This document shows positions 5,206 to 39,709 of a stretch of DNA of 64,000 nt, in pieces. Origin of the DNA: Candidatus Bathyarchaeota archaeon (GTDB taxonomy: Archaea > Thermoproteota > Bathyarchaeia > 40CM-2-53-6 > CAVXDP01); assembly GCA_963760485.1 (NCBI GenBank), contig CAVXDP010000011.1, positions 574-64,573 of the forward strand, given 5' to 3'. How positions within the stretch are numbered: the first letter of the stretch is position 1; the number at the start of each line of letters is the position of its first letter. The position numbers were made by a program, and so were the translations under genes. A model generated the notes under the pieces. The model did no database searches and had not been told where the DNA came from. It was given only the letters and a program-made list of their open reading frames with translations.

Positions 5206-5216
5206 ATGATCTTCCA

Positions 5217-5873: not shown

Positions 5874-5879
5874 ATAGCG

Positions 5880-6426: not shown

Positions 6427-6489
6427 GGCGACCTTCACATGAGGCTTTTTGAGCTTTGACTGTGCTAGTACTCCAAGCCGTCTAGTTGT

Positions 6490-10062: not shown

Positions 10063-10072
10063 CCCGAGTCAT

Positions 10073-11781: not shown

Positions 11782-11973
11782 AAACGGCTCGCTAGCTCTT
11801 CCCCTTCGTACCTAACTTCGTTTCTAGCGAAGCCGGATTGTTTGATATAAAGTTTGTCCGATTGATATCGATTGCCAGAATTGTCTGATGTTCCCACGCC
11901 TGATGACCACCTTCAAGCAAGTTTTTTATATGAAAGGAACGCTTTCAGTCGCAATTTCGGGAGCGTGAGGAAA

Positions 11974-14269: not shown

Positions 14270-15564
<1,295 letters not shown>

Positions 15565-17266: not shown

Positions 17267-18142
17267 TTGCAAATTGGAATCCTTACTAGAAGAGAGGACT
17301 CCTGGTGTGGAATGAGACTCAGAAAGGCCTTTGAGGACAGGCACAAAGATGTTAACTTCTTCGGTTTCCAAGATCTCGTTGCAAGGGTTCGACAGACTCC
17401 GACCATATCTTTTGGAAATGCGGATCTAACATCAGAATTGTCTGCCCTGTTCGTGAGACCCATTGGGAGAGGATCCTTAGACGAGATAGTATTCCAGTTG
17501 GACATTCTCCATACGTTATCGCAGGAAGGCGTATCCGTAATAAATGCGCCTTCAGCTATCGAGAAAGCCGTGGACAAATATCGGGCACTCGAACTTCTGA
17601 CCCGTGCAGGAATTCCGGTTCCGACAACGATAGTCACTGAGAATGTTAGTGAGGCGGTACGAGCGTTTGAGAGTTTTGGAGGAGAAGCTATCGTCAAACC
17701 CGTGTTTGGCTCACGTGGGATAGGCGCTGCCAGAATTTCTGACATAGATGTAGCTGAGAGGGTCTTTCGAACTCTTAGATTCTACAAGCATGTAATATAC
17801 GTTCAAGAGTTCATTCCGCACGGAACAAGCGACATAAGAGCGTTCGTGATTGACGGTGAAGTTGTTTCTGCTATGAGAAGAAATTCAAAGTCCTGGAAGA
17901 CGAATGTGAGTCGAGGAGCCACACCGACTGAGTTTGAACCCTCCCAAGAGTTAAGAAAGATAGCTGTGGACGCTGCCAAGGCGATAGGTTGTGACATCGC
18001 AGGAGTGGATGTCATGGAAAACGGTCAAAGCCTTATCGTAAATGAGGTTAATTCTCAGCCAGGATGGAAAGGACTGCAATCAATAACCAAAGTCGACATA
18101 GCTGGCAAGATAGCAGATTACGTGATATCCACAATCAGATAG
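17267..18142 (+). CDS. RimK-family ATP-grasp ligase (CofF/MptN-like alpha-L-glutamate ligase)
   Basis: The ATP-grasp core EAIVKPVFGSRGIGAARI…YVQEFIP…NEVNSQPGW is present. It lies adjacent to cofE. Confidence 0.65.
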   Translation: MQIGILTRREDSWCGMRLRKAFEDRHKDVNFFGFQDLVARVRQTPTISFGNADLTSELSALFVRPIGRGSLDEIVFQLDILHTLSQEGVSVINAPSAIEKAVDKYRALELLTRAGIPVPTTIVTENVSEAVRAFESFGGEAIVKPVFGSRGIGAARISDIDVAERVFRTLRFYKHVIYVQEFIPHGTSDIRAFVIDGEVVSAMRRNSKSWKTNVSRGATPTEFEPSQELRKIAVDAAKAIGCDIAGVDVMENGQSLIVNEVNSQPGWKGLQSITKVDIAGKIADYVISTIR

Positions 18143-18153
18143 ATGCACGGTTC

Positions 18154-19242
18154 TTATAGGTCGAATTCGATGTCCAGATTCTTAGCCAGATCCCGGAGGC
18201 TCTCCCAGACCCTGAAGTATAGAGGTACCCCATTCTTTCTGTAGTCTTCCTCCAACTCCCATTCTTTTTCGCCATGGATGTAGATTCTTTCTTGGCCCTT
18301 TGCTTTGGCTGAGTTTCTGATAGTTCTGATCATGACGTCCATTCGTTCTTTGAACTCCTCTAGTGGCGTGAAAGCGTCAATATCTATGGCTCCTAGGAAG
18401 TGCCCGATATCAGATGGTTTGGGATCTTCTGGGGTTCCCACGTGAGGTCCATAAGCTGCTCCGGGTAGTATACCTGAGAGTATGTCGACGAGGATAGATA
18501 ATCCGTAGCCCTTGTATCCGGCGGTCTCATCTAATCCCCCCAACGGTAGGAGTCCACCACGTTTTGTCTTGTATATGGAGCGCATAACGGTCTCTGTGTC
18601 GACCGCAGGGTTATTGTCTTCATCTATTGCCCACCCTGTGGGCACTGGTTTTCCGTGTCTTCTGTAGACTTCCATTTTTCCGATTGGAACGACGCTCGTG
18701 GCCATGTCCAATACATAGGGGCGCTCGTGTTTCGTGGGTACGGCGAAAGCCACTGGGTTGGTTCCGAGTATGGGTTCTATGCCGAAGGTTGGAACGACAA
18801 GTGGCCACGCGTTTGTCGTACTGAGTCCTATCATGTTCTCTTTCAATGCCATCATGGCGTAATAGCCGGCGATTCCAATATGATTGCTGTGAGTAACGGG
18901 AGCAAATCCCAGATGAGTTTTCTTGGCTTTGTCGATGCATCGCTCCATAGCTCTATAGGCAACCACTTGTCCGAGGCTGTTTTCTCCATCTATGAGTAGG
19001 CTGACAGGAGTCTCCCTTCTTATTGTAAGTCTAGCTTTGGGCGGTATCCACCCGTTCATCAACCGGTTGGCATACCTGGGCAATCGTGAGACGCCATGCG
19101 ACTCGATTCCTCTCAGATCAGCTGATACGAGAACATTCGCTGTTATCTCAGCTTCATCATGTGGAACATCCAATCGTTCTAGAACGCGTACACAGAATGC
19201 CTGCAGAGAATCTGCTTGAACATTCCGTTCTTGATCAGGCAA
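18154..19242 (-). CDS. Ldh2-family 2-hydroxyacid dehydrogenase (malate/(S)-sulfolactate/2-hydroxyglutarate dehydrogenase type, ComC/MdhII-like)
   Basis: 362-aa Mdh/Ldh_2 family protein (IESHGVSRLPRY…HSNHIGIAGYY…). It is the last gene of the fwd-mch operon. Confidence 0.7.
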   Translation of the reverse strand: MPDQERNVQADSLQAFCVRVLERLDVPHDEAEITANVLVSADLRGIESHGVSRLPRYANRLMNGWIPPKARLTIRRETPVSLLIDGENSLGQVVAYRAMERCIDKAKKTHLGFAPVTHSNHIGIAGYYAMMALKENMIGLSTTNAWPLVVPTFGIEPILGTNPVAFAVPTKHERPYVLDMATSVVPIGKMEVYRRHGKPVPTGWAIDEDNNPAVDTETVMRSIYKTKRGGLLPLGGLDETAGYKGYGLSILVDILSGILPGAAYGPHVGTPEDPKPSDIGHFLGAIDIDAFTPLEEFKERMDVMIRTIRNSAKAKGQERIYIHGEKEWELEEDYRKNGVPLYFRVWESLRDLAKNLDIEFDL

Positions 19243-22789: not shown

Positions 22790-22793
22790 TCAA

Positions 22794-24097: not shown

Positions 24098-24568
24098 TGG
24101 GACCCACTTCCTGCCATATGACCTCTTGATAAGACTCTCCAGTCTTGCGACTTCTTGGTCGAGTGCAGGAGAAACTTCCGCGTCGATACCCTTCAGAGAT
24201 GGCATACCACTGCCATGAGTTTGAGGATCCGTTACACGGTTCGCCCATGGACCGTATGGAATGAAGGCGATGCCTTTTGGCAATGTCTGTTTTGCCGTGT
24301 AGGCTTTCACCACCACGTCTCCAAAATCTGTCTTCACCTTGATGTTTGCACCTTCTGAGATGCCTAGGAGGCTTATGTCCTCGGAATTCAACTCGCACAT
24401 CGCAGCGCTTTGAAAATACTGTTCCGAAAACTTGCCGAGCTCCTTACCTCTGCCCTGCCCTATGGTTCTTCCAGAAATGAGTTTGACTTTCACGAGAGCC
24501 AATTTGCGAATCCTATCCGGAACGTTGCATATGGTCAAAGGATTGATCATTCTTAAGATTTGCTTCAT
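24095..24568 (-). CDS. fwdD: formylmethanofuran dehydrogenase subunit D (molybdopterin dinucleotide-binding domain)
   Basis: 157-aa protein with the typical FwdD segment (…GRTIGQGRGKELGK…KVKTDFGDVVVKAYTAKQTLPKGIAFIPYGPWAN…). It is the first gene of the fwdDBAC-mch operon. Confidence 0.75.
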   Translation of the reverse strand: MKQILRMINPLTICNVPDRIRKLALVKVKLISGRTIGQGRGKELGKFSEQYFQSAAMCELNSEDISLLGISEGANIKVKTDFGDVVVKAYTAKQTLPKGIAFIPYGPWANRVTDPQTHGSGMPSLKGIDAEVSPALDQEVARLESLIKRSYGRKWVP

Positions 24569-26748: not shown

Positions 26749-26778
26749 ATCGAAAACTCAACTTCAAGACGCGTAGTT

Positions 26779-27189
26779 CTATTCGTGGATTTCTTCGATC
26801 TTCTCCACATACATCAGCGTATACTTCAGATCAGGGACATATCTCATCCTCAGCAAAGCTCGAACATTACCGTACTCTGCCACGACTTGAAGGTCCATAT
26901 GTCGCCCCTTCAATGTCTCGTAGTCGTATGGATTAGCTTTCTGTCCCTTCAAAGTGCTCCTGTCTATCTTGAGTTTGACAGATTTCTTGTATGGTTGAAG
27001 AGCCATCACATTGGATACAGCATTCTCAAGAGACTTCACAATCATCTCGTTCTTTGCAATGGGAGTTCCAACGAATTGATGATATGTCGCTCCTAGAGCA
27101 ATCGCTCCCTCGAAAATTGCCCTTTCCCGGTTTGTCATAGTCTTGTCAAAGTATTTTCTCGCGATCGATTCCACATCTCCCATCAACAA
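26779..27189 (-). CDS. mptD: archaeal 7,8-dihydroneopterin aldolase
   Basis: 136-aa MptD/DUF381-like protein (…RERAIFEGAIALGATYHQFVGTPI…) in a pterin-biosynthesis context. Confidence 0.6.
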   Translation of the reverse strand: MLMGDVESIARKYFDKTMTNRERAIFEGAIALGATYHQFVGTPIAKNEMIVKSLENAVSNVMALQPYKKSVKLKIDRSTLKGQKANPYDYETLKGRHMDLQVVAEYGNVRALLRMRYVPDLKYTLMYVEKIEEIHE

Positions 27190-27194: not shown

Positions 27195-27957
27195 CTAGAG
27201 TTCACCGAGAGTAACATTATCGACTCCATCAATCTTTTCTCCAGACCCAGTTGCATTCAATATCTCTGCTCTAGCCCAACTAGCCAACCAACTTAACAAT
27301 TCCTTTGCCATCTGAAGCTTTCTTATCTTCTTTGAGCCTGCACGATAATCCATTATGTGACCCGGCTTAGAATATTTTCCCGCAACCGTGCCAAAATCCA
27401 TTCCCAACAGGATTACGCGTTTGGCCCCAACCTCCTCCGCCAGGAAAGCCAGCTCTGTCACCATCTGTGAAACCTCCAAAATTGTACACGTGGGGACGCG
27501 CCTCTACCTGAGTCGATCCAAGTACACTCCCAAACTTTGGAACATACCTCATAAGAGAGATCTCGTTATCTCCGTGAGCGTGAATAACCACCACCGACCC
27601 TTTCTTACTTGCATCCACTAAATCTCCAACATCACCATCTAGATCCGTTACCACAATTTCCGGAACAAGATGGTAGCCCCTCAAGAGTGAAGTGGTCGCA
27701 CCGTCTGCTGCAATCGATATCGACCTGCCTTTCAGCCCCGATGTGAGATACTCATTGAGGTTTCTCTCAAGCGAGGGACCGCAACCGAATACGACTGCGT
27801 TCTCACGCTCGACTATTCTCTGGACAGCCGAGGGAAGAATTGCTTTGCCCTCTAACAACTTCTCCAGGAGATCTGCTGACTTCGCGTCCTCGGACCAATC
27901 AAAAGAGAATGCAGTGAGAATCCTTTCGTACCAAGGGCGCCATTTGTCAAAATCCAT
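27195..27957 (-). CDS. mptE: archaeal 6-hydroxymethyl-7,8-dihydropterin pyrophosphokinase (one frameshift near ~27420)
   Basis: The N-terminal 196-aa ORF and the C-terminal 94-aa ORF overlap in different frames. Together they give a ~250-aa MptE/DUF115-type protein (…VVFGCGPSLE…VVTDLDGD…). Confidence 0.6.
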
Positions 27958-28002: not shown

Positions 28003-28490
28003 CTAATGTCTCAGTTCCTTCTTTATCTGCCCTATTGTGATGGATCTCTGCGCATAGAAATCGTGTTTGTGAATACTCTCCCTGCTTCTTGCAGTGAATA
28101 CAAGCCTCGCACTATCTGGTAACTCCCGGAACCGTTTTGCCATGTTTTTCATCATGTACCGTATGCTACCCTCGGCGAAACGTGGTCGCGAGACCGCCAC
28201 CCTTACTATCTCCCCTTCATCTTGTCTTTTCAACAGTTCGAAGGTTGAGGCGCTCATTGACTCCTCTATCACTTTGACCAGTTTCATAGCATCCACGTCA
28301 ACACCCTCAGGCACGCCCATTGTGACTATTCCATATGTTCTCTGCATGTGCCTAGCCACCGGAACCTGAGCTACAATACGTTCGATCAATTCCTTTCCAA
28401 GCTTCGTATTCCTTGCAATTACTGAAATTGACTTTTCTCTGAGAATCTCCTGTGCACAAGGACATGACAGTTAGGGGTTTGCCTTCGAAC
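28003..28490 (-). CDS. small protein with a T-fold/FolE2 (MptA)-like C-terminal motif, possibly a truncated GTP cyclohydrolase MptA remnant
   Basis: The C-terminus has SRESIHKHDFYAQRS, which resembles the ESIHxHxA motif I recall from FolE2/MptA-family C-termini. The open frame extends to ~28490. It is too short (<=160 aa) for a full MptA. Confidence 0.3.
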
Positions 28491-28705
28491 GACACGAAAC
28501 CGATTGGCATTTTATCCCGATTGCACCCACCTTTGTCAGTGATATTCTTACGTCCAGCTTTCTATCTTGAACGTCAATCGATCTCATGTATGATCACACA
28601 AAAAGACCCAGTTCGATCATTAATACCCGCACACTGGCACATAATAAGTATCATTTAGTCAATCTTTCATAAGAGCTGTCACCGACTACAGGTGAGGGTG
28701 CAAGA

Positions 28706-29680
28706 TTGAAAGTAAGTATCATGACTCCGGCAAGACTTCATTTAGGGATCATTGACACTTGTGGCGAGCTGGGACGTATCTACGGGTCCATCGGGATCAC
28801 AATTGACAAGCCCAATGTCGAATTGGAGGCAACTCCTTCACGCACTCTAGGAGCAACTGGTCTGGATGCCGAGAGAACAATTCGAATAGCTAGAAGATTC
28901 ATTGAAAGATTTCCCAAAGCAACTAATGCCGATATTAATGTCACGAAGACGATCCCAGAGCATGCCGGACTAGGATCAGGAACACAACTCTCGCTTGCAG
29001 TTGGAAAGGCTATCGCAGCAGTCTCTGCACTTGATCTCAGCGTCAGAGAGATTGCGTCAGCTTTGGGAAGAGGACGAGTGTCAGGGATTGGCGTAGGCGC
29101 GTTTGAACACGGTGGATTCATATTGGACACCGGAAGAAGAAACGGGCCCGAGACTCAATCCGTCGAATCAAGTGTGTCCCTGACAGTGTTTCAGAGGAAG
29201 TTCCCGGAAGAGTGGCGCTTTGTCGTGGCTATACCAAATGTCGGCAAAGGCCTATTCGGACGGGCTGAGCAGGAAGCATTCTCGGCTCTGCCCCCAGCCT
29301 CCCCAGAACTTGTCGGCAAAATCTGTAGAATAGTAATCATGAGGATGCTTCCATCGCTCATCGAACAGAACATAAGAGAGTTTGGCGAGTCCGTAACAAC
29401 TGTGCAAGACCTCGTTGGAGAAAGCTTCAGCAGAGTTCAGGGAGGACTATTCTTCAGTCCACTCGTGGAAGATTCAATCCACTTTATGCTCAGATCTGGC
29501 GCCTATGGAGCTGGTCAAAGTTCATGGGGACCTGCTATGTACGGAATAACGGAAAGCTCCTCTCGCGCGGAGATGCTCAAGCAACGCCTTGAAGGATTTT
29601 TGAACGAGAGAGGCGGTGGTTCGGTGTTTGTTGCGAAAGCGAACAACGATGGAGCTCGAACTACTACCTCAGATGCGTGA
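28706..29680 (+). CDS. mptG: beta-ribofuranosylaminobenzene 5'-phosphate (beta-RFA-P) synthase, GHMP-kinase fold
   Basis: 324-aa protein. The N-terminus MTPARLHLGIIDTCGELGRIYGSIGI is typical of RFA-P synthase. The GHMP motif PEHAGLGSGTQLSLAVG is present. A TTG start is used. Confidence 0.65.
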   Translation: MKVSIMTPARLHLGIIDTCGELGRIYGSIGITIDKPNVELEATPSRTLGATGLDAERTIRIARRFIERFPKATNADINVTKTIPEHAGLGSGTQLSLAVGKAIAAVSALDLSVREIASALGRGRVSGIGVGAFEHGGFILDTGRRNGPETQSVESSVSLTVFQRKFPEEWRFVVAIPNVGKGLFGRAEQEAFSALPPASPELVGKICRIVIMRMLPSLIEQNIREFGESVTTVQDLVGESFSRVQGGLFFSPLVEDSIHFMLRSGAYGAGQSSWGPAMYGITESSSRAEMLKQRLEGFLNERGGGSVFVAKANNDGARTTTSDA

Positions 29681-31477: not shown

Positions 31478-32392
31478 ATGAGAATTGGGAACGTAGAAAT
31501 TGACGACAACGATTTCGCAGAAGCATTTCCTATGTGGGCATGTAGAGCACTCATAACTGCTCAGGACGAGAAATGGGCTAGAACAGCCGCCCATACAAGT
31601 ACTGGGTTCGCTTCTTCAATAATAATGTCTCCCGCCGAGGCGGGTGTTGAAGGCCCAGTCGTTTCACCCGAGAGGACACCGGACGGCAGGGTAGGAGTTC
31701 ATATTCAAATCTACCACAGGACGGGAATGGAGCTCAAGCTACAGGTGCTTGGCCGCATTGGTCAGTGTGTCCTTACCTGCCCCACCACAGCAACATTTGA
31801 CGCTATGCCAAAGGCTGTCAAGAGACTCAAGATCGGTCGAATGATCAGGATGTTTGGCGACGGTTTTGAGTCCAAAGACACTCTTGGTGGCCGCAAGATC
31901 TGGAGGATTCCTGTAATGGAGGGCGAGTTCATCATAGAAGACAAGTTCGGCGTTAGGAGAGCTGGAGCTGGCGGGAACTTTCTGATAATGGCAGATAGCC
32001 AGAAAGCAGGTCTTGCAGCGGCTGAAAAAGCAGTTTCGGCAATTTCGACTGTTAGCGGCGTGGTTTTGCCGTTTCCTGGAGGGATCTGCAGATCTGGATC
32101 GAAGGTCGCATCAAACAAATACAAGCTGAGAGCTTCAACGAACGATCCATATTGTCCCAAGCTAAGGAGCATAACGGGAAATTCTCTAGTGCCAGACGGC
32201 GTGACAAGTGTCTACGAATTGGTCTTCAACGGAGTTACGCCAACTCTTCTGAAGAGGGCTACTGCAAGGGGGATAAGAGCGGCAGCAACTGTTCCCGGCG
32301 TTAGGAAGATAACAGCCGTGAATTTTGGTGGAAAACTCGGCCCCATCCAAATCAAACTCAAAGAAGCGCTTGATACAGAACCGGAAAAGTGA
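31478..32392 (+). CDS. ftr: formylmethanofuran:tetrahydromethanopterin N-formyltransferase
   Basis: 304-aa protein with full-length Ftr similarity (VEIDDNDFAEAFPMWACRALITAQDEKWARTAAHTSTGFASSIIMSPAEAGVEG…). Confidence 0.85.
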   Translation: MRIGNVEIDDNDFAEAFPMWACRALITAQDEKWARTAAHTSTGFASSIIMSPAEAGVEGPVVSPERTPDGRVGVHIQIYHRTGMELKLQVLGRIGQCVLTCPTTATFDAMPKAVKRLKIGRMIRMFGDGFESKDTLGGRKIWRIPVMEGEFIIEDKFGVRRAGAGGNFLIMADSQKAGLAAAEKAVSAISTVSGVVLPFPGGICRSGSKVASNKYKLRASTNDPYCPKLRSITGNSLVPDGVTSVYELVFNGVTPTLLKRATARGIRAAATVPGVRKITAVNFGGKLGPIQIKLKEALDTEPEK

Positions 32393-32398: not shown

Positions 32399-33454
32399 CT
32401 AGCGCGCCTTAGGCTTCAGATAGTCCGTACCTTTAGCCTCTATTGACCCTATCACTATCCTGTGGTAGACATCTCCATTTCTCTTGTCATACACTCTCTC
32501 TAGCTTTCCTCGAGCCTGAACCCTTTCGCCAAGGGACGCTATATCACAGTAGAACCCCTCGTAAGTCGCTATCTCTTTGATGTCAGCTACAGATGGCCCG
32601 TTGAGGATTCGTACTGAACCAATGCGATAGGTACCTGGCATGAACACTGATTCTCTTGCATCATCTATGATTGCTTCTGCATCAACAATGCCCTCTGGCG
32701 AGTAGATTCTGTCACCATACGTTTCGCCTATTTCTGTTTCAACCCTCCCAGGGTGGATTGAGAAGTCGGTTCCTTCAAAGATTCCTCGATTCCAGTGTCT
32801 ACGATATATCCGCTCAACTTCTGAGCGGTCTAATGGATACAACCACGCCCTCGATGTCACCCATTTCTTGACAGCGGCTTCATCAAATGAACGAAGGCTC
32901 GGGTTGCCGCTGTGCAGCATATCTAGAACCGCCGTCTTGACCTTCAGACTATTCTCTTTTCCGTAAACCGTCAAGTCGATATCTGAGAACGCCGGATTGT
33001 GAATATCTACTAATATTGAGCCTGTTATCCCAAATTGTTTCGGATCGACACGACTCTGTTTGGAAACCGTTTCCAAAAGGCGTACCGCTTTTCTTTCAAG
33101 GGGATCGAGATGTTCAGCCCCAAGTAGATCTGATAGTCTAGACTCGGGGCAGTAGTGGACTCGAATACTATACAAAGGGACTGCAGATATGAGGAGATGT
33201 TGCGTTTCTGAGTTGTATAAGTACTGAGGATAGAACTCTTCCAGATAGTCGAAAGTTCCTTTGACATGTAAGGTCGAGTAGTACTTGAGTGCTCGATCGT
33301 ATCTTCTTGTTTCGAATCCCCAGGCACCTTTACGATTAGGTACATACTTGAGGTATGCTAGTACTCTGTCGACAGGATGAACGTCGCCAACCACAGTGAA
33401 AAGGAGGCCTTCGACAGTTTCTATGTAATCTCTATTTCTGTATCCCCTTTTCAT
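32399..33454 (-). CDS. uncharacterised protein with conserved N-terminal domain plus Pol-beta-type nucleotidyltransferase motif (paralog 1)
   Basis: 351-aa protein. It carries GITGSILVDIHNPAFSDIDLTVYG, a GS-x(n)-DxD NTase signature. It shares the N-terminal motif DYIETVEGLLFTVVGDVHPVDRVLAYLKYVP and C-terminal blocks with 34237..35259. Confidence 0.5.
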   Translation of the reverse strand: MKRGYRNRDYIETVEGLLFTVVGDVHPVDRVLAYLKYVPNRKGAWGFETRRYDRALKYYSTLHVKGTFDYLEEFYPQYLYNSETQHLLISAVPLYSIRVHYCPESRLSDLLGAEHLDPLERKAVRLLETVSKQSRVDPKQFGITGSILVDIHNPAFSDIDLTVYGKENSLKVKTAVLDMLHSGNPSLRSFDEAAVKKWVTSRAWLYPLDRSEVERIYRRHWNRGIFEGTDFSIHPGRVETEIGETYGDRIYSPEGIVDAEAIIDDARESVFMPGTYRIGSVRILNGPSVADIKEIATYEGFYCDIASLGERVQARGKLERVYDKRNGDVYHRIVIGSIEAKGTDYLKPKAR

Positions 33455-33614
33455 AGGATTCCCTTACCTCAAGCAACTTGAGAGCCGGAATACAAAAGAT
33501 TCCCCCTTGACATTAGAATATCGACTTCAAATGAAAGAACATTATCATATGAATCCCATGTAAGATATTGGGAGCGTTATGAGATCACAAGATTCCACGG
33601 GTGGACCATAATAA

Positions 33615-34166
33615 ATGAAAGTGCTTGGAGTCATCGGTAGCCCCAGGAGAGATGGGAACACCTCTATCCTGATAGACGAAGTGCTCAGAGGCGCCAAAGA
33701 TGTTGGCGCTATTGTGCAGAAGATCTTCTTGAATGATCTTGATATCAAACCCTGCCAGTCTACATGCAGTGCAAACTGCAAGAAGACGGGGAACTGTACA
33801 ATAGACGATGACATGTCACCTCTTTACGACGAACTTTACGATAGTAATGTCATAATCCTCGGCACACCGGTCTACTGGTACGGCCCATCCGCTCAACTGA
33901 AAGCCTTCATTGATCGATGGTTCGCATTCTCACATCCAGAGTTCATCAACAGAATGACTGGAAAAAAGATGATCTTAGTCGCTCCATTCGAGGAGACTGA
34001 CATTTCCGCATCCGATGCCCTAGTTGAAATGATTAGTAGATCTGCGAAGTATCTGAAAATGGAGTTACTAAGAACACTGCTCGTTACCGCCGGAGAGAAA
34101 GGTGCCGTAAGAAACAACAAGGAGGCAATGACTCAGGCATACAGAATGGGACTAGATTTGAAGTAG
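33615..34166 (+). CDS. flavodoxin-like NADPH-dependent FMN reductase / iron-sulfur flavoprotein (Isf)-like
   Basis: 183-aa protein. The N-terminus VLGVIGSPRRDGNT is an FMN-reductase motif. A compact Cys cluster CQSTCSANCKKTGNC resembles the Isf Fe-S motif. Confidence 0.55.
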   Translation: MKVLGVIGSPRRDGNTSILIDEVLRGAKDVGAIVQKIFLNDLDIKPCQSTCSANCKKTGNCTIDDDMSPLYDELYDSNVIILGTPVYWYGPSAQLKAFIDRWFAFSHPEFINRMTGKKMILVAPFEETDISASDALVEMISRSAKYLKMELLRTLLVTAGEKGAVRNNKEAMTQAYRMGLDLK

Positions 34167-34236
34167 CGACGAGGTAGGAGTCTCACATGCAATTGTACGA
34201 TACATCAACCACTCAGATACGAATACGCCAGAGAAA

Positions 34237-35259
34237 TCAACTGAACACTATGAAGTCGAGCGAGGATTCCCCTACAACCAACTGGTAATACTCGTCATTC
34301 TTTGTTGAAACGTGTTCCAGATCACCATACGCAGTTATTCTCTCTCCCGTCTTAGCCTGTTCACAGAAACGTCCCCGAAAAGACAGGATCTGCTTGGGTG
34401 CTGGATCACTACGGTCAATCACAGATACTTTCTCAACTTCGTATGTACAAGGAGTAAATATTGATTCAGAATCATCAGATACAATAGCCGAGATCTTCTT
34501 TCTTCCAAGCCTCTGACACGTAAAGCTTCCATACGGTTCTCGAATCTCATCCCAGTCTCTGATGCATCTGACGAAGTAATCGCGGCCTTTGAAATTTCCT
34601 TGAAGAACCTTTCTGCGTTCATGAGTACAGAAATCATCGAACTTCATCGCTCTCTCCATAGATCTTGACTTGAACAGTCGGCCTAGGTCATCTATATCAT
34701 AGGCCTCGAACATATCCCCCGACGACATGGCATTTCTTAAAGCTTGATAGACTCTCCTTGAATTGCCTACTCCATAAATCATGATGTCCACGTCTGACTC
34801 TGGCTCCTGCAAACCGACCAATACTGATCCAGAAATGCCGACACTTGTTGTCCTGACTCCCGCGACATCTATCAATCTTCGAGCCAATTGAATAGCGTCC
34901 CGTTCAACCTCATCGTTCGATGGCTCACTGAGTCTTCTTCTAGGATCGTAGTGTGAGTGCACATTTTCCAACGGCACTGCTTGAAGTTCTCTGCCGAAGT
35001 AATCGTCGAAGTGTATGTATCCTGGAAAATATCTTCGCAGGAAATTCCATCTCTGTTCTAGATCGTAGATCTTTTTGTATCTCACACCCCTGCGTTCTCT
35101 GTCCCCATCGGGGGAAGGAACGTACCGAAGAAAGGATATGATTCGATCAACGGGATGAATAAGCCCCTTCACGTCAAAGATAAGACCTTCAATGGTTTCG
35201 ATGAAATCACCTTCCCTGCCTCTCGTCAAACCCGTTGTCAAATTGTTATCCCCACGCAT
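34237..35259 (-). CDS. uncharacterised protein with conserved N-terminal domain plus Pol-beta-type nucleotidyltransferase motif (paralog 2)
   Basis: 340-aa protein. It carries GISGSVLVGLQEPESDVDIMIYG. It shares the N-terminal motif DFIETIEGLIFDVKGLIHPVDRIISFLRYVP and the C-terminal blocks IFTPCTYEV / FRGRFCEQAKTGERITAYGDLEHV with the 32399..33454 protein. Confidence 0.5.
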   Translation of the reverse strand: MRGDNNLTTGLTRGREGDFIETIEGLIFDVKGLIHPVDRIISFLRYVPSPDGDRERRGVRYKKIYDLEQRWNFLRRYFPGYIHFDDYFGRELQAVPLENVHSHYDPRRRLSEPSNDEVERDAIQLARRLIDVAGVRTTSVGISGSVLVGLQEPESDVDIMIYGVGNSRRVYQALRNAMSSGDMFEAYDIDDLGRLFKSRSMERAMKFDDFCTHERRKVLQGNFKGRDYFVRCIRDWDEIREPYGSFTCQRLGRKKISAIVSDDSESIFTPCTYEVEKVSVIDRSDPAPKQILSFRGRFCEQAKTGERITAYGDLEHVSTKNDEYYQLVVGESSLDFIVFS

Positions 35260-35315
35260 TTTGAATGATCAACGCGCTTATCTACTTGTAGAACGTGTTC
35301 AACACCTGACCTCTC

Positions 35316-35975
35316 ATGTCACTTTCTAGCCTCGGTTATCGGAAGGGGTCAATTTACGAGGTCATAGTAACCACATTCGACGCCCAAAAACGACCTCACG
35401 CTGCGCCCATGGGCGTCACTGTCAGCAAAGCCAGGGAGTTCATTCTACGTCCCTTTGTGGAAACAGAGACTCTGAACACGCTAAAAGTATCCAAATGTGG
35501 AGTCATCAATGTGACCTCAAATCCTTGGAGGTTCTTTAGGACTGCCCTAAAAAATGAAGCATGGGTCGGACCTCCTCCAAGCAGCTGGTTTGAGCACGCC
35601 AAGCAAGTGATGGCTCCTCGCCTAAGGTCATCCGATTCCTACGCTGAGTTCCATGTTATGGACATCTTGTGTCATGGTCCACGCCGCCTGATTAGATGTA
35701 AAGTCGTGCATGTAGATTCCACCAAGAGGGGAATCACGCCTTATTGCCGAAGCACGTCTGCGACAATAGAGAGCATCATTCACGCGACCCGAGTCAAAGA
35801 ACTACTTAAGGAAGGAGACATAAGGGGTGCAAAGAGGCTGATAGATCTCATGAAATATTACGGAGAACTGACTAACAGGGTTTCTCCGAAGTCAGATGAG
35901 GCTAAAATAATTCGCTGCTTGCTTAGGCACATGGGAGGGCTCATGACCGTCAGTCCGCAACCAAGACGCTCGTGA
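35316..35975 (+). CDS. DUF447-family protein (FMN-binding split-barrel-like; H4MPT-cluster associated)
   Basis: 219-aa protein. The N-terminus IYEVIVTTFDAQKRPHAAPMGV is typical of DUF447. It is encoded divergently from NTase paralog 2. Confidence 0.45.
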   Translation: MSLSSLGYRKGSIYEVIVTTFDAQKRPHAAPMGVTVSKAREFILRPFVETETLNTLKVSKCGVINVTSNPWRFFRTALKNEAWVGPPPSSWFEHAKQVMAPRLRSSDSYAEFHVMDILCHGPRRLIRCKVVHVDSTKRGITPYCRSTSATIESIIHATRVKELLKEGDIRGAKRLIDLMKYYGELTNRVSPKSDEAKIIRCLLRHMGGLMTVSPQPRRS

Positions 35976-37734
35976 TACTCAACTTGTTCACGTCTACTAG
36001 ACCTTTGTCAGTGATTCTTAGCTCTGGAAGAACGGCCAATGACATGAAAGATAAGACAGAGAACGGTTCGTCCAGTTTTGCTCCGAGTTTCTTAGCCGCT
36101 GCATTCAGAGCCTCGGCCTTGTTCGCCACTTCATCCGCCGGCTTGTCAGACATTAGACCCGCTATGGGGAGAGCTAATTTGGCCAGTACGTGACCTGATT
36201 CTACGGCTGTGAGACCTCCGTCCATGTCGGACACAATATTAGCAGCGAACGCCATGTCTCCGCTGCGGACTCCCAAAACGACTATGTTGTGCGCGTCGTG
36301 CGCAACTGTCGACGCTATCGCGCCTTTCTTCATGCCAAAACCTTTGACGAATCCTTTTCCAACGTTTCCGGTCGCTTTATGTCTTTCAACGACTCCAATC
36401 TTGATGATGTCGTTCGCCGGGTCGGACTCAACTATCCCATCTTTCACCCTAATGGTAAGCACGAGTTTCCGGGTGACTGCCCCGCCTTTTGTGACGTCGA
36501 TGATCAGAGCTTTGACTGGCCCGTCGGATACCTCAGATTTGATGTCGAAATCAGGGGCACATAGCTGCTTCCCAACATGAATGGTTTTCTTTGCGTATCC
36601 CGGGTATTCCGGATTGGGAATATTCGCATTAAGAATTCCATCTTCCGCGACAACACGGCCGTTGGCGATCACTTTCTCAGGTTTCATCTCTTTGAGGTTT
36701 TTCATTATGAGTACATCTGCGATTCTACCCGGCGCTATCATACCAACTTCTTTACTCACCTTGAAATGTTCAGCAGTGTTGATTGTTGCCATCTGGATCG
36801 CTCGAATCGGATCAAGCCCCTCCTCGATTGCTCGTCTGACAATATGGTTCATGTGGCCGTTGTTGACAAGATCCATTGCAGTTATGTCATCAGACACAAA
36901 AAGGCAATGTCGATGGTCAACCTTTGTCTTCAAAAGTACCTTAAGCAATTCGTTCATATTCCTCATCGTTGAACCTTCTCTCAGTTCAAGCTTCATGCCA
37001 AGACGAAGATTCTGAAGTGCATAGTCTGCTGTGGTGGCTTCGTGGTTTCCTTCAATTCTACTCGCTACGTATGCATTGAGCTGGGCTTCAGTTAGTTTTG
37101 GTGCGTGGCCTTCAACCGTCCTTCCAGATTTCTCTGTTTCTTCGATTTCCTTCAGTAGTTTCCAGCTCTTTTCAAATACGCCCGGGAAGTTCATGACCTC
37201 TCCAAGTCCGATAACGCCTTTCCAAGTCATTGCCTTCTTCACGTCATTAGCATTGATTGTTGCGCCGGTAGTCTCTAGGCCAGGAGCAGATGGTACACAT
37301 GACGGCATCTCAGCGAAGACTTTGAGTGGAAGATTGCTCGCCTCTCTCAGCATCAATTGGATACCCTTGATACCTAGTACGTTTGCAATTTCATGCGGGT
37401 CCATCATGACAGCTGTTGTTCCTCTTGGAAGTGCTGCTCGAGCAAATTGGGTTATGGTAAGCATCGAGCTCTCGATGTGAACATGTCCATCTATGAATCC
37501 CGGAACCAGATACGATCCCTTGGCATTGATGACTGACGACCTATCACATTGAATCTCTTCAACGTTCCCGACGAATGCTATTCGACCATTCTTTATCGCA
37601 AGTCCTGTGTGCTCAATAATCTCTGCAGTACAGACGTTCACAAGGCGCCCGTCTTTCACTACAAGGTCGGCCTTTCTCCGCCCAAGAGCGACATCAATGA
37701 GACTCTTTACATCATATATGTCCAAAGTGATCAT
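35950..37734 (-). CDS. ade: adenine deaminase (amidohydrolase superfamily)
   Basis: 594-aa protein (…GFIDGHVHIESSMLT…MMDPHEIANVLG…) with full-length Ade-like architecture. Confidence 0.75.
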   Translation of the reverse strand: MITLDIYDVKSLIDVALGRRKADLVVKDGRLVNVCTAEIIEHTGLAIKNGRIAFVGNVEEIQCDRSSVINAKGSYLVPGFIDGHVHIESSMLTITQFARAALPRGTTAVMMDPHEIANVLGIKGIQLMLREASNLPLKVFAEMPSCVPSAPGLETTGATINANDVKKAMTWKGVIGLGEVMNFPGVFEKSWKLLKEIEETEKSGRTVEGHAPKLTEAQLNAYVASRIEGNHEATTADYALQNLRLGMKLELREGSTMRNMNELLKVLLKTKVDHRHCLFVSDDITAMDLVNNGHMNHIVRRAIEEGLDPIRAIQMATINTAEHFKVSKEVGMIAPGRIADVLIMKNLKEMKPEKVIANGRVVAEDGILNANIPNPEYPGYAKKTIHVGKQLCAPDFDIKSEVSDGPVKALIIDVTKGGAVTRKLVLTIRVKDGIVESDPANDIIKIGVVERHKATGNVGKGFVKGFGMKKGAIASTVAHDAHNIVVLGVRSGDMAFAANIVSDMDGGLTAVESGHVLAKLALPIAGLMSDKPADEVANKAEALNAAAKKLGAKLDEPFSVLSFMSLAVLPELRITDKGLVDVNKLSITSVLVAD

Positions 37735-37903: not shown

Positions 37904-38845
37904 TTGACTATTCTAGAAGATGAAATTGCCTCTTGTCTTCAGCTCGCAATGCTACTGGAAACCAGCGCCTATCCGAAACCAGGGAATGTTCACAGAACTA
38001 GAGATTTTTCGGAGACTAGATTTGAGCACTTTCTTGCATCATCCGCTTCACTTGGTTCCACTTACAGATGGGCCGCCCATAGAGGGATATTGATCTCAAA
38101 AGGCATCTTGAACTTGGATGACGCTAGACTTGGGAAAGCCATCCGGCTTGGAGTCGAGAACATGATGCGATGGCAGAAGGGTGGAAACACAAGTCTCGGA
38201 ACCATTCTGCTACTTACCCCTATTGCAACTTCAGCGGCGTTGACGTTGATAAGCGGCAAGTTAGAAATGAAAACACTGCGTGTCAATTTGATCAAATTAC
38301 TACAATCCGCAACCCACATTGATTCATTGGACGTCTACAAAGCAATTTCAAGAGCATCACCTGGTGGAATCGGATCAAGTGATGAACTAGACGTAATGTC
38401 ACCTGAATCACTGGATCATATTGAAAAGAACCATGTCGGACTACTGAGAACTTTCAAGATATCAGCTAGACGCGATTCTATTGCATCTGAGTGGATCAGC
38501 GGCTATAGAACAACTTTCGAGATCGGCTATCCGTACTTCGCACGCGCCCTCGATGACGGCTTGGACATAAACACTGCCACAGTCAATACATTTCTCAAGA
38601 TCCTTTCGACGGTCCCGGACACACTGATAGCACGAAAGGTTGGAATCAAGAAAACACGTTATGTTTCTGCACGAGCCAGGGAATGCCTAAATGCCGGCGG
38701 ACTAGCAACAAGGAAAGGGTTCAGGTTAGTCAATAGACTAGACCAAGACCTGAGAACTCCTAATCACGAACTTAACCCAGGAACAACGGCAGACTTGGTC
38801 TCTGCGGCTCTTGCTCTCGCGCTCCTACAAGGACTTAGGCCCTAG
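37904..38845 (+). CDS. CitG/MdcB-family triphosphoribosyl-dephospho-CoA synthase homolog (H4MPT-biosynthesis associated)
   Basis: 313-aa protein. The N-terminus ETSAYPKPGNVHRTRDF is the CitG signature. Homologs occur in archaeal-type H4MPT gene sets. Confidence 0.6.
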   Translation: MTILEDEIASCLQLAMLLETSAYPKPGNVHRTRDFSETRFEHFLASSASLGSTYRWAAHRGILISKGILNLDDARLGKAIRLGVENMMRWQKGGNTSLGTILLLTPIATSAALTLISGKLEMKTLRVNLIKLLQSATHIDSLDVYKAISRASPGGIGSSDELDVMSPESLDHIEKNHVGLLRTFKISARRDSIASEWISGYRTTFEIGYPYFARALDDGLDINTATVNTFLKILSTVPDTLIARKVGIKKTRYVSARARECLNAGGLATRKGFRLVNRLDQDLRTPNHELNPGTTADLVSAALALALLQGLRP

Positions 38846-39709
38846 AGCCTGTCGTGAAACACGCATGTTTTCATGATTCAATCTTCTCACGATCACGATC
38901 GGAGTATGCTTAACGTTCTGGAGCATTTCCCACGTGACTCGATGCGGATCCACACGAAAGGTTTCACCCATATCCCAAACAGTTCTTCCTGCTCCGGAAC
39001 CCCTAACTTTGTTCGCTACGGCAGAGATCTGCAGAGCTTCATTAGTACCTAGATTCTCTCCAACCACAGCTAGAGGAGTAGACCTTGGAGTCAGTTTCAA
39101 CAATCTTCCAAAGACGTAGGCGAATAGCCCGAAACATCTAACTCCAGAAACAGTTGTACGCCTAACACTCATGTGGAACCCAGAAAGACTATACGTCTTA
39201 TCGGAGTCGACAACCAATACCGTTGTCTTCTTTCCTGTCTCGACATAGAGTCGCTCTTGAATCCTTGTCGCCTCTCTCTTTGGATCATCAAGAGGCAAGG
39301 CAACCAGAGAGAACGGAAGGTTACTTGCATCGATTCCCCCTTCTGATCCGTGCCTCAGAGCCTGAATGAAGCCCGTTTCGTCAATCGCCAATTGCTTGTG
39401 AGCTGCACCTTCTAGAATTGGGTAGTTTCTCAGCCGTGAGATATTCGTTGGGCTCAGATGGCACAGCCGACCCAGAACTCGACCCCAGACAACCCTCATC
39501 CAACCCACTGCAATCAGCTTTGCCAAGAAGCGTGGTTTGATAGGCGCCTCATCAATGACGTGTCCAGTGGCCACTGAAAGCGCCTTCTCAGATACTACCA
39601 AGAAGTCACCTTCATGAATAATCTTGGAAACGTGAACCAATAGATCTTCCATCCATTCATCCATCGGCTTCCAATACGAAGTTTGGACAGCTCTTGCAAT
39701 GTACTTCAA
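38825..39709 (-). CDS. CofE-like (F420-0:gamma-glutamyl ligase family) paralog
   Basis: 294-aa protein. EGDFLVVSEKALSVATGHVI and GGIDASNLP…TTVLVVDSDKTYS parallel the CofE motifs at 15692..16477. Overall divergence from that gene is strong. Confidence 0.5.
   Translation of the reverse strand: MKYIARAVQTSYWKPMDEWMEDLLVHVSKIIHEGDFLVVSEKALSVATGHVIDEAPIKPRFLAKLIAVGWMRVVWGRVLGRLCHLSPTNISRLRNYPILEGAAHKQLAIDETGFIQALRHGSEGGIDASNLPFSLVALPLDDPKREATRIQERLYVETGKKTTVLVVDSDKTYSLSGFHMSVRRTTVSGVRCFGLFAYVFGRLLKLTPRSTPLAVVGENLGTNEALQISAVANKVRGSGAGRTVWDMGETFRVDPHRVTWEMLQNVKHTPIVIVRRLNHENMRVSRQALGPKSL

Follow-up and report, generated by a model that had tools for sequence, protein, structure and literature searches.

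A CitG-associated nucleotidyltransferase family of archaea as a candidate for methanopterin side-chain biosynthesis

Genes at the locus

The window (the whole 64-kb stretch of DNA from a Candidatus Bathyarchaeota archaeon that was analysed) contains two minus-strand genes, NT_A and NT_B, of an uncharacterised nucleotidyltransferase (NTase) family. The surrounding genes turned out to be those named in the earlier note, i.e. Ftr, a flavoprotein between the two paralogs, a DUF447 gene, an adenine deaminase and a CitG-like gene. The features are as follows.

17267..18142, plus strand: RimK-family ATP-grasp ligase, best match MptN (NCBIfam RimK 219.9 against 143.4, passed)
18154..19242, minus strand: Ldh_2-family 2-hydroxyacid dehydrogenase (Pfam Ldh_2, 414.5 bits)
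28706..29680, plus strand: beta-RFAP synthase family gene (TIGR00144, 219.5 bits, cutoff 113.5)
31478..32392, plus strand: Ftr (formylmethanofuran:H4MPT formyltransferase), convergent with NT_A (Pfam FTR and FTR_C; NCBIfam above cutoff)
32399..33454, minus strand: NT_A, 351 aa, clade-A member of the NTase family
33615..34166, plus strand: FMN_red / Isf-like flavoprotein, between NT_A and NT_B (Pfam FMN_red, 80.4 bits)
34237..35259, minus strand: NT_B, 340 aa, clade-B member of the NTase family
35316..35975, plus strand: DUF447 gene, diverging from NT_B with a 56-bp gap (Pfam DUF447_N, 61.5 bits)
35950..37734, minus strand: adenine deaminase (TIGR01178, 580 bits, above cutoff)
37904..38845, plus strand: CitG-like (triphosphoribosyl-transferase family) gene (Pfam CitG, 238.5 bits)
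38825..39709, minus strand: divergent CofE/F420-ligase-like paralog (Pfam F420_ligase, 53.7 bits; TIGR01916, 40.7 bits against a cutoff of 180)

The reaction of beta-RFAP synthase is the one that first commits the pathway to the arylamine side chain of methanopterin, and MptN is the H4MPT:alpha-L-glutamate ligase. The MptN-like ligase of the window lies next to Mch and reaches 261 bits against MptN_Meth, below the cutoff of 350. The best NCBIfam match of the Ldh_2 gene is L-sulfolactate dehydrogenase (268 bits, below cutoff), and its product is a candidate source of (S)-2-hydroxyglutarate, a link which we presumptively take from the M. jannaschii enzyme MJ1425.

NT_A and NT_B share 32% identity over 336 aa (BLASTP, E=5e-51), so that the two open reading frames are clearly paralogous, as had been claimed, and no third copy of the family was found in the 64-kb window by tblastn. 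All of the motif blocks quoted in the earlier note could be recovered in both proteins and are mutually aligned. The N-terminal block reads DYIETVEGLLFTVVGDVHPVDR..LKYVP in NT_A and DFIETIEGLIFDVKGLIHPVDR..LRYVP in NT_B, and the NTase signature reads G142-ITGS146..S157-D158-I-D160-L and GISGS..SDVDI, respectively. Two further blocks are shared, namely VFMPGTY with IFTPCTY and GERVQARGKLERV with GERITAYGDLEHV. Across 66 homologs the residues H26, P27, G142, G145, S146, S157, D158, D160, G165, P273, Y276, G316 and E319 are invariant.

Fold and family of the two proteins

AlphaFold models of NT_A and NT_B were obtained with pLDDT of 95.6 and 93.5. According to these models, the chain is composed of an N-terminal beta region, which carries the invariant His-Pro, a Pol-beta nucleotidyltransferase core and a C-terminal OB fold. 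Two hallmarks of the Pol-beta-like superfamily are present: G142-x-x-G145-S146 and S157-D158-x-D160 fit the pattern of G[GS] followed by [DE]x[DE] about 10-15 residues on in the next strand, and the core has the alpha/beta fold of these enzymes. For the third catalytic carboxylate, there is no conserved acid in strands 223-236, while E241, just after them, is nearly invariant. With the Pfam model NTP_transf_2 (PF01909), NT_A gives no hit and NT_B stays sub-threshold (19.9 bits, cutoff 21), while homologs exceed the cutoff with 22.4, 23.5, 23.9 and 25.5 bits, and a precomputed PF01909 match is attached to many hits of the family.

Apart from this, searches of NCBIfam, PADLOC and PDB sequences returned nothing for NT_A or NT_B, in line with the earlier view that they belong to no named family. 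No solved structure matches the whole chain (best Foldseek E = 1e-2). The closest structural matches of the core are the RNA-specific NTase cores of GLD-2, TUT4, CutA and Cid1, and those of the OB fold are the nucleic-acid-binding SSB, RPA and the anticodon-binding domains of AsnRS/AspRS. Compared with the superfamily at large (GLD-2/TUTase, Pol X, CD-NTase and CCA-adding cores), the domain combination was absent from the PDB searches run. The exclusion of TiaS, CCA-adding enzymes and CD-NTases, made before from the missing DDTDS start (TiaS) and from the layout (the other two), also holds; the structure searches place the proteins in the Pol-beta superfamily at the level of the core only. TiaS (tRNA-Ile2 agmatidine synthetase) is archaeal, of similar overall size and also contains an OB fold; the family lacks its catalytic (TCKD) domain and N-terminal motif and has no whole-chain match. 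A CCA-adding enzyme was rejected for want of a whole-chain structural match, and a CD-NTase or other anti-phage defence NTase because neither a defence-model match nor a whole-chain CD-NTase fold was obtained.

The family is small, with 1,686 representatives among 1.84 billion, and its named members come from Bathyarchaeia, Thermoprotei, Methanomethylicia and Asgard archaea. It is divided into three ancient paralog clades (A, B and C), and the GxxGS/SDxD motifs are intact in every copy of all three. The paralogy behind the supposed conserved NTase pair is thus real, but there are three paralog clades rather than two. Clade B is the one directly adjacent to CitG in Bathyarchaeia, Methanomethylicia and Culexarchaeum; Vulcanisaeta, Methanomethylicia and Culexarchaeum have a single NTase copy adjoining CitG in the stretches examined. 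The named members, about 45 and the best matches of each search, include no euryarchaeal methanogen.

Gene neighbourhoods of the homologs

To see the context of the family, the neighbourhoods of homologs were tabulated for 22 loci from Bathyarchaeia, Thermoprotei (Vulcanisaeta), Methanomethylicia, Asgard archaea and two probably bacterial MAGs. It turned out that genes of H4MPT and methanofuran dominate, with other such genes within 10 kb of the NTase in 14 of the 22 loci. For instance, in L007 and L009 DUF447, CitG and NT_B are co-directional with spacings of -7 and +9 nt, and the three genes lie inside a cluster of MptH, RFAP synthase, DUF1464, MptE and an Fe-S-flavoprotein. L016 contains a run of NT_B, DUF447, RFAP synthase and MptH, elsewhere NTase clusters adjoin CitG, Fwd-type genes and Mch, and in L028 the gene is part of a complete MptA-MptH-Ftr-Mch-RimK-CitG...MfnB-NTase island. 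DUF447 is thus a recurrent member of a DUF447-CitG-NT_B module. The CofE/F420-ligase-like gene, which in the window is convergent with the CitG-like gene and overlaps its end, also adjoins the module in L002 and L016 and lies near the NTase in L020.

Besides, one homolog (P0300) is a fusion of HPPK (PF01288, 137.7 bits; residues 8-134) with an NTase-family domain (residues 170-502), and downstream of it are a Flavoprotein gene and then a DHPS-like pterin-binding gene. Two marks of membership in the pathway were thus observed, conserved linkage to established H4MPT genes across lineages and fusion of the domain to an enzyme of the pathway. The association with the pathway is strong, and the NTases are supported as credible candidates for a missing H4MPT step, as had been suggested; their reaction and biochemical role are inferred. 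The suggestion of F420 precursors as substrates finds no such backing, for nothing was found that links the family to them. A confident match to a housekeeping family, or members spread over organisms without these cofactors, would have refuted the earlier note. Neither was seen: no housekeeping family matched, and the lineages of the named members are reported to carry H4MPT/methanofuran genes (PMC5020050).

The conserved partner of the NTase gene is the CitG-like gene, found within 5 kb in 16 of 22 loci and adjacent (114 nt or less) or overlapping in nine of them. In cultivated Vulcanisaeta the two genes overlap by 14 nt, and Methanomethylicia and Culexarchaeum have tight CitG-NT_B pairs. 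When neighbours were clustered without bias, CitG was the only broadly recurrent one (10 of 14 loci). As a point against the pathway linkage, five loci (L004, L008, L010, L012 and L013) have CitG and none of the probed H4MPT/methanofuran genes within 10 kb of the NTase, the contig of L012 being only 5.9 kb long. Of the conserved context proposed earlier, the linkage to the H4MPT pathway therefore stands, but the partner is the CitG-like gene (plus DUF447), while Ftr, the Isf-like flavoprotein and adenine deaminase are lineage-local neighbours and not conserved partners. The flavoprotein is absent at this place in L002 (a 65-aa ORF is found instead) and in other loci. Only the window and the closely related L002/L003 have adenine deaminase between DUF447 and CitG; the enzyme is possibly a scavenger of adenine released by a CitG-type reaction, which is a weak, lineage-specific link.

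The CitG-like protein scores 81 bits against the NCBIfam CitG/MdcB equivalogs, far below the cutoff of 280, and has only 29% identity over 110 aa with E. coli CitG, from which we judge it to be a distant paralog of genuine CitG/MdcB. Homologs of CitD, CitE, CitF, CitC or CitX were not found in the window or any fetched locus, and with both results a citrate-lyase enzyme was rejected.

A proposed role in the methanopterin side chain

C1 units are carried by methanopterin in methanogenesis, in the anaerobic oxidation of methane, in the Wood-Ljungdahl pathway of archaea and in the oxidation of formaldehyde by bacteria. To our knowledge, the enzymes that build its ribose-phosphate-hydroxyglutarate end have never been identified. 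We tentatively propose, as a possibility that falls somewhat short of probable, that the NT_A/NT_B family and the CitG-like enzyme act in the biosynthesis of methanopterin-type C1 carriers through a two-step scheme. What was observed here, and what the proposal builds on, is that the proteins are paralogs, how they fold, that every clade keeps its catalytic motifs, that CitG, DUF447 and H4MPT genes are conserved neighbours, and that one homolog is fused to HPPK; the substrates and the order of steps are inferred. In the first step, the CitG-like enzyme would use ATP to put a 5-triphospho-alpha-D-ribosyl group on the terminal ribitol hydroxyl of the pterin-aminophenyl-ribitol intermediate, with adenine leaving as in the CitG/MdcB reaction on dephospho-CoA. 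In the second, the hydroxyl of (S)-2-hydroxyglutarate would attack the alpha-phosphate of the triphosphate at the GS...DxD metal site of the NTase, releasing PPi and forming the ribose-5-phosphate-hydroxyglutarate phosphodiester of methanopterin. The NTase would then act after the CitG-like enzyme, like CitX/MdcG after CitG/MdcB, and the two or three paralogs may form a hetero-oligomer or serve different acceptors. No biochemical data are available, and the assignment therefore rests on association and chemical analogy.

CitX and MdcG join triphosphoribosyl-dephospho-CoA to a serine hydroxyl. Like the NTases, they are encoded beside a CitG-family gene, often in overlapping frames (citG-citX in E. 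coli), and the chemistry, inferred in the case of the NTase, is also the same, with a phosphodiester formed and PPi lost when a hydroxyl attacks a 5-triphosphoribosyl compound at its alpha-phosphate. MdcG was reportedly described with a nucleotidyltransferase signature by Hoenke et al. in 2000. The title of that study, as cited in PMC5534430, ties the transferase to an ancient class of nucleotidyltransferases. Alignment of the family with E. coli CitX by hhalign gave a probability of 0.15%, PF03802 had no hit and no Pfam match to MdcG was found in the NTase family; the analogy is therefore functional, not evolutionary. The NT proteins differ in being about twice as long, with the extra N-terminal beta region and C-terminal OB fold, in the proposed acceptor, which is a small hydroxy-acid where CitX and MdcG use a serine on an acyl carrier protein, and in having no carrier protein or lyase genes nearby.

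A second comparison is with the 'archaeal-like' C1 islands of methylotrophs (mch-orf5-orf7 etc.), which follow the same island logic as L018 and L028 (PMC3615186, PMC8141765). These two loci carry Ftr, Fwd/Fhc, Mch, RimK-like (orf5 type), CitG-like (orf7 type), His_biosynth (orf17 type), ATP-grasp_3, Hydantoinase_A, AA_kinase and MfnB, whereas the proteobacterial islands, as far as their descriptions go (the genomes themselves are not covered), list no such NTase. H4MPT has a phosphate and an alpha-hydroxyglutarate moiety and the dephospho-H4MPT of M. extorquens lacks both (PMC8141765), so island lists without the NTase are what the hypothesis predicts; absence of the family from the genomes is not thereby shown.

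That euryarchaeal methanogens are missing from the named members counts against the scheme. At least one of them has a CitG-type gene (PMC7386643). Either another enzyme does the work there, or the family is used for a variant of the side chain that is restricted to TACK/Asgard archaea. The methanopterin of euryarchaeal methanogens does contain hydroxyglutarate.

Alternative explanations

It is not obvious why one phosphodiester should take two or three paralogs with intact catalytic sites, and this speaks against the two-step scheme. The NTases may instead serve another step of the side chain, where the ribose 5-phosphate is derived from PRPP, one paralog adenylylates the 5-phosphate to an ADP-ribose-like diphosphate and PPi, and a second couples hydroxyglutarate with AMP leaving; or the paralogs may attach different alcohols or acids in lineage-specific methanopterin variants. 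All of the pathway-association evidence fits equally here, and two or three intact paralogs suit two half-reactions or several acceptors better than one step. In cell extracts, White's 1996 work reportedly proposed PRPP, not ATP, as ribose-5-phosphate donor, followed by an ATP-dependent addition of hydroxyglutarate; this counts against the two-step scheme, and the ATP-dependent addition would be reconciled here. However, it does not explain why the NTase gene is so closely, and often translationally, coupled to the CitG-like gene, and the single NTase copy beside CitG in the stretches covered of Vulcanisaeta, Methanomethylicia and Culexarchaeum also speaks against it. We regard this explanation as unlikely while keeping it in view.

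With its OB fold, and with GLD-2, TUTases and CutA as the closest NTase cores, the family has traits typical of RNA-directed enzymes, which counts against the two-step scheme. The family might be RNA- or tRNA-directed, acting in terminal transfer or tRNA modification with the OB fold binding nucleic acid and merely co-located with C1 genes, and its best structural matches would agree. Its genomic context, unlike that of the superfamily, is cofactor biosynthesis and not RNA/DNA metabolism or defence (PADLOC found nothing). We give this reading very little credence. It also seems quite improbable that the CitG-like enzyme and the NTase modify some unrecognised carrier protein of the C1 pathway with a prosthetic group linked through phosphoribose, as a true functional copy of CitG/CitX or MdcB/MdcG. 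The pairing does mirror that of E. coli, MdcB and MdcG jointly install 2'-(5''-phosphoribosyl)-3'-dephospho-CoA on ACP Ser25 (PMC5534430), and an OB fold could be a protein- or ligand-binding module. Against this, the window and the loci have neither a carrier of CitD/MdcC type nor a homolog of CitE/F/C, the CitG-like proteins miss the equivalog cutoffs by far, and synthesis of a small-molecule pterin cofactor is indicated by the HPPK fusion and by the operons shared with RFAP synthase and MptH.

Implications

Returning to the two-step scheme, its full form, which is conceivable and which we would not call probable, is that the CitG-like enzyme and the NTase catalyse the last two steps of the methanopterin side chain with ATP (adenine release) and not PRPP, that 2-hydroxyglutarate is coupled directly, and that the paralogs correspond to diversified side chains in Bathyarchaeia, Thermoprotei and Asgard archaea. 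By analogy, such a route would repeat the prosthetic-group pathway of citrate lyase on a small molecule. The DUF447, CitG-like and NTase genes make a concrete three-gene module with a specific chemical prediction, which is testable with proteins of cultivated Vulcanisaeta. If it is true, textbooks would have to replace PRPP by ATP as the source of the ribosyl group, a function would be assigned to an NTase family of new structure, and C1 metabolism in Bathyarchaeia and Asgard archaea would be better predicted from genomes.

Paralogous NTase genes in an H4MPT island

The two putative nucleotidyltransferase (NTase) genes, NT_A and NT_B, share 32% identity and 53% positives over 336 aa (BLASTP, E = 5e-51), and a tblastn search found no third copy in the 64-kb window. 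They and their neighbours are arranged as follows.

Genes around NT_A and NT_B
31478-32392, plus strand: Ftr, convergent with NT_A
32399-33454, minus strand: NT_A, 351 aa
33615-34166, plus strand: FMN_red flavoprotein, between NT_A and NT_B
34237-35259, minus strand: NT_B, 340 aa
35316-35975, plus strand: DUF447, divergent from NT_B, 56 bp apart
35950-37734, minus strand: adenine deaminase
37904-38845, plus strand: CitG-like gene
38825-39709, minus strand: divergent CofE-like gene

Both genes exist at the coordinates reported in the earlier note, the sequence blocks it quoted are all found in both proteins and align, and the neighbouring genes agree with its description. The FMN_red flavoprotein carries a compact C-x3-C-x3-C-x5-C motif (residues 47-61) recalling iron-sulfur flavoproteins, and is missing at the syntenic position in L002, a locus from a close relative. 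The divergent CofE/F420-ligase paralog scores 40.7 bits against TIGR01916 (cutoff 180), shares 21 nt with the 3' end of the convergent CitG-like gene, and is also present near the module in L002, L016 and L020. It could be another unassigned side-chain enzyme.

The rest of the island is located upstream of the two NTase genes.

Upstream genes of the window island
15692-16477: bona fide CofE
17267-18142: RimK-family ligase, best match MptN
18154-19242: Ldh_2 2-hydroxyacid dehydrogenase, best NCBIfam match L-sulfolactate dehydrogenase, below cutoff
19281-20243: Mch
20250-24568: FwdD/B, FwdA, FwdC
25182-26492: DHPS-like MptH, TIGR00284 above cutoff
26779-27189: DHNA/MptD-type gene
27195-27957 and 28003-28590: MptE and MptA fragment
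28706-29680: beta-RFAP synthase, TIGR00144 above cutoff
Within the island: DUF1464 and flavin reductase

The Ldh_2 and MptN-like RimK genes (17267-19242) directly adjoin Mch. In M. jannaschii, the Ldh_2 enzyme MJ1425 is reported to produce the (S)-2-hydroxyglutarate of methanopterin by reducing 2-oxoglutarate, and the site at which MptN works is the hydroxyglutarate end of H4MPT. The pair would be compatible with a hydroxyglutarate side chain that is supplied locally and then decorated further, and its presence suggests that the organism makes a hydroxyglutarate-bearing cofactor.

Compared with the intact orthologs in L002 and L009, three pterin-branch genes are disrupted in the window (26455-26757, 27195-27957 and 28003-28590). 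Frameshifts are located near 26487 in MptH and near 27450 in MptE, where two overlapping ORFs are left (27195-27479 and 27367-27957); MptA keeps residues 1-42 and 158-310, with about 115 residues lost in between and a frameshift near 28510. Since the disruption sites are not homopolymers and the window contains no N runs, assembly error and real gene decay are both possible. The enolase ORF at 14719-15564 covers only the C-terminal TIM barrel (Enolase_C, residues 1-278 of 281), with the N-terminal domain outside the ORF, and may be another frameshift of this assembly. Few ORFs of at least 150 aa are found in positions 1-11800, which could reflect small genes or frameshifts like those in MptE, MptH and MptA.

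A new domain combination in a known superfamily

To the earlier note the two proteins had looked like Pol-beta-type NTases of no named family, and both parts of this view are upheld. In the 66-sequence family alignment the NTase residues G142, G145, S146, S157, D158 and D160 are invariant, and several homologs exceed the gathering score of PF01909 (22.4-25.5 bits). Also invariant are H26-P27, which belong to the N-terminal beta region, and four OB-domain residues: P273, Y276, G316 and E319. Motifs and predicted fold place the proteins in the Pol-beta NTase superfamily, as does the profile score at the level of the family. No curated family claims either protein: NT_A has no Pfam match, NT_B reaches 19.9 bits against NTP_transf_2 (cutoff 21), NCBIfam and PADLOC give no match to either, and PHROGs gives a single marginal generic NTase match (E = 0.0088). 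Searches of PDB chain sequences with NT_A, NT_B and the 66-sequence profile returned noise only, and Foldseek against PDB found nothing at E ≤ 1e-3. Tests for membership in the CitX, MdcG, TiaS, CCA-adding and CD-NTase families were negative in each case. The family is a new domain combination inside a known NTase superfamily.

Homology to CitX is ruled out by an hhalign probability of 0.15%; for MdcG the sole evidence is that the family does not match Pfam MdcG, without a direct sequence comparison. A defence or phage origin is ruled out by the empty PADLOC result and the lone PHROGs match. The motif residues are complete in every clade, so neither paralog is a decayed copy and reading one of them as a pseudo-enzyme is excluded.

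Family size, distribution and clades

This is a small family: among 1.84 billion representatives, a profile search picked out 1,686 proteins at E ≤ 1e-3 (604 at E ≤ 1e-30), and a single-protein scan of genome contigs found at least 12 close relatives. Named Thermoproteota members come from Bathyarchaeota/Bathyarchaeia, Methanomethylicia, Culexarchaeum, Geothermarchaeota and Thermoprotei, the last including the cultivated Vulcanisaeta sp. JCM 14467; named Asgard members come from Promethearchaeota, Wukongarchaeota and Baldrarchaeia, and Aenigmarchaeota and Zixibacteria each appear as a single MAG label. No classical euryarchaeal methanogen is among the named members in the matches listed.

A neighbour-joining tree of the locus-encoded copies contains three old clades. 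NT_A falls in clade A, together with the copies from Vulcanisaeta and Thermoprotei and a divergent A' group; NT_B falls in clade B; clade C is abundant and well conserved (2,017 matches). The paralogy proposed for the pair stands; the family consists of three clades rather than two. Because Bathyarchaeia and Asgard archaea carry copies in both A and B, the duplication is ancient. Some Bathyarchaeia have three clustered family genes beside a membrane protein and CitG-Fwd-Mch (L017:9009-10085; L023:6979-10076; L024:7030-10089; L025:7030-10089), with products of 327-344 aa, 356-358 aa (C-type) and 336-337 aa; those of L023 and L024 are placed in clades A', C and B. The window has only the NT_A and NT_B types within its 64 kb. 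In L017, where the A' and C genes next to it are intact, the clade-B gene (7974-9012) is broken into two ORFs (7974-8279 and 8320-9012), either by a frameshift or because it is a pseudogene.

The CitG-like gene is the conserved partner

In all, 22 non-redundant loci from about a dozen lineage groups, the window included, were compared. When the ORFs of the first 14 loci were all clustered without bias, the CitG-like gene was the sole broadly recurrent neighbour (10 of 14); in the full set, 16 of 22 loci have a CitG-like gene no more than 5 kb from a family member. In nine of them (L004, L007, L008, L009, L010, L012, L013, L016 and L018) the two genes overlap or are at most 114 nt apart; in Vulcanisaeta (L018), whose NTase is WP_054850186.1, the CitG-like gene comes second and the reading frames overlap by 14 nt. 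One membrane-protein gene separates them in L017 and L023-L025. The conserved partner of the NTase family is the CitG-like gene. Ftr, the Isf-like FMN_red flavoprotein and adenine deaminase were rejected as conserved partners, as their positions are kept only in the window and the closely related L002/L003.

Judged from their sequences, the CitG-like proteins clearly differ from the citrate-lyase enzyme. Against an NCBIfam equivalog cutoff of 280 bits they reach 81, they match E. coli CitG over the C-terminal 110 residues only, and no CitD/E/F/C/X homologs were found in the window or any locus.

A multi-pass membrane protein of about 250 aa recurs between or beside the CitG and NTase genes (L004:7047-7796; L011:7092-7850; L017:7244-7951; L023:10088-10837). 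It has no Pfam match, and one ortholog has a weak precomputed match to an ECF-riboflavin S-component. A wHTH-PfkB kinase family recurs in L006, L011 and L017. This may point to precursor uptake or salvage.

Association with H4MPT and methanofuran genes

Other H4MPT or methanofuran genes lie within 10 kb of the NTase in 14 of 22 loci. For example, L007 and L009 contain a co-directional DUF447-CitG-NT_B run with spacings of -7 and +9 nt, surrounded by MptH, RFAP synthase, DUF1464, MptE and Flavoprotein plus 4Fe-4S protein genes, and NT_B, DUF447, RFAP synthase and MptH form one co-directional run in L016. The Vulcanisaeta locus has Ftr, three Fwd-subunit-type Pfam genes, Mch, a RimK-type gene, the NTase and CitG, followed by ATP-grasp_3, an MfnB-type gene, and then AA_kinase, Hydantoinase_A, Fae and SHMT. 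The NTase of L020, a Thermoprotei MAG, is found among MtdB-like, His_biosynth, CofE-like, MfnB-type, MptE, DHNA (MptD-type) and DUF447 genes, and the three Bathyarchaeial contigs L023-L025 combine three NTase genes, the membrane protein and CitG with four Fwd-type genes and Mch. L028, a MAG contig of 67% GC that is probably bacterial, encodes MptA, MptH-like, Ftr, Mch, RimK, CitG, His_biosynth, ATP-grasp_3, Hydantoinase_A, AA_kinase, MfnB and the NTase.

In the Asgard loci L014 and L015, NT_B-NT_A is followed by FwdD/FwdB-like genes and an H+-pyrophosphatase. The latter lies two genes downstream of the pair in L015 (10605-12788), L014 has the homologous cluster, and the window island also has a membrane H+-pyrophosphatase (11872-13857). 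If PPi is released by the NTases, its presence may matter; it may also be coincidental.

In the Methanomethylicia and Culexarchaeum loci, no other H4MPT gene is close to CitG-NT_B. What adjoins the pair instead, at L008:4905-6928 and at the equivalent positions of L010 and L013, are genes for succinyl-CoA-synthetase-like alpha and beta subunits in divergent orientation, with ATP-grasp_2/Ligase_CoA and CoA_binding/Ligase_CoA domains.

A gene fusion narrows the cofactor. The 505-aa protein P0300, encoded within L026:5626-9086 (also L027), consists of HPPK (PF01288, 137.7 bits, residues 8-134) fused to the NTase family domain (residues 170-502); a Flavoprotein (PF02441) gene lies 1 nt downstream, and a DUF6513/PterinBD DHPS-like gene comes next. 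This ties the family to the pterin cofactor specifically, not methanofuran. The L026 contig is probably bacterial, because it also has MacB/FtsX and GntR-aminotransferase genes.

Proposed function and alternatives

CitG and MdcB transfer 5-triphospho-alpha-ribosyl from ATP to the dephospho-CoA hydroxyl and release adenine; CitX and MdcG join the product through its alpha-phosphate to a serine hydroxyl and release PPi. The terminus of methanopterin is a ribitol-5-O-(alpha-1'')-ribofuranose-5''-phosphate esterified to (S)-2-hydroxyglutarate. Two of its bonds are at issue: one is a glycosidic link between an alpha-ribosyl group and an alcohol, the other a phosphodiester that connects the ribose 5-phosphate with a hydroxyl. 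Both are of the types made by CitG plus CitX/MdcG, which is functionally the closest known system, and from this match two steps are inferred for the CitG-like enzyme and the NTase. As the family is not homologous to CitX and has no Pfam MdcG match, the parallel extends no further than chemistry and gene pairing. The roles of MdcB and MdcG are described in PMC5534430, which cites Hoenke et al. 2000, a paper that, by its title, relates MdcG to ancient nucleotidyltransferases; the phosphate and alpha-hydroxyglutarate moiety of H4MPT is missing from M. extorquens dH4MPT (PMC8141765).

In the inferred pathway, the CitG-like enzyme would use ATP to ribosylate the ribitol hydroxyl of the pterin-aminophenyl-ribitol intermediate, after which the NTase would join the triphosphate so formed to 2-hydroxyglutarate, PPi being lost. 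The third module member, DUF447, whose match is the Pfam DUF447_N family and whose proteins have an FMN-binding fold, may reduce the ribofuranosylamine to ribitylamine beforehand, which is speculation. The adjacent adenine deaminase of this lineage would remove the adenine by-product; support for this is weak, as its place beside the module is not conserved.

Several points argue against this proposal. In the classical cell-extract scheme of White (1996), PRPP is reportedly the ribose-5-phosphate donor and hydroxyglutarate addition ATP-dependent. The named members listed include no euryarchaeal methanogen, though such organisms make methanopterin; a CitG-type gene is present in at least M. formicicum (PMC7386643). 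It is not obvious why one phosphodiester should call for two or three active paralogs, and CitG-NT_B has no other H4MPT genes nearby in the Methanomethylicia and Culexarchaeum loci. A role at another step of the same pathway would account both for the paralogs and for the reported ATP dependence, a step in which PRPP-derived ribose 5-phosphate is adenylylated and then attacked by hydroxyglutarate with AMP leaving, the halves being split between paralogs, or in which the paralogs attach different acceptors; the coupling to CitG is then left unexplained. The predicted OB fold, like the closest NTase cores, is of a kind typical of enzymes that act on RNA, which also argues against the proposal and speaks for an RNA-directed NTase; we disfavour the latter in view of the synteny, the HPPK fusion and the restricted distribution. 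That fusion speaks likewise against a true protein prosthetic-group system of CitG-like protein and NTase, for which the carrier protein is missing as well, and this reading is also disfavoured.

The suggestion that the pair belongs to H4MPT synthesis is supported, and sharpened by the CitG-like partner, the three clades and the HPPK fusion. Without biochemical data, we consider it probable that the family acts with the CitG-like enzyme in methanopterin-type cofactor biosynthesis; that the NTase forms the hydroxyglutarate phosphodiester is inferred by analogy and remains tentative, a reasonable possibility rather than an expectation. Methylorubrum extorquens carries the CitG-like orf7. Methylotroph papers treat orf7 as an H4MPT-linked gene and state no reaction (PMC3615186; PMC11533326). 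Full-text searches found no literature link of CitG-type genes or the NTase family to methanopterin side-chain synthesis; an earlier in-silico prediction by comparative genomics in a subscription journal is not excluded.

In conclusion, this is a new NTase architecture, which apparently applies the logic of the citrate-lyase cofactor to a small-molecule coenzyme. The gap in methanopterin biosynthesis, which to our knowledge has stood for decades, becomes a direct three-protein experiment.
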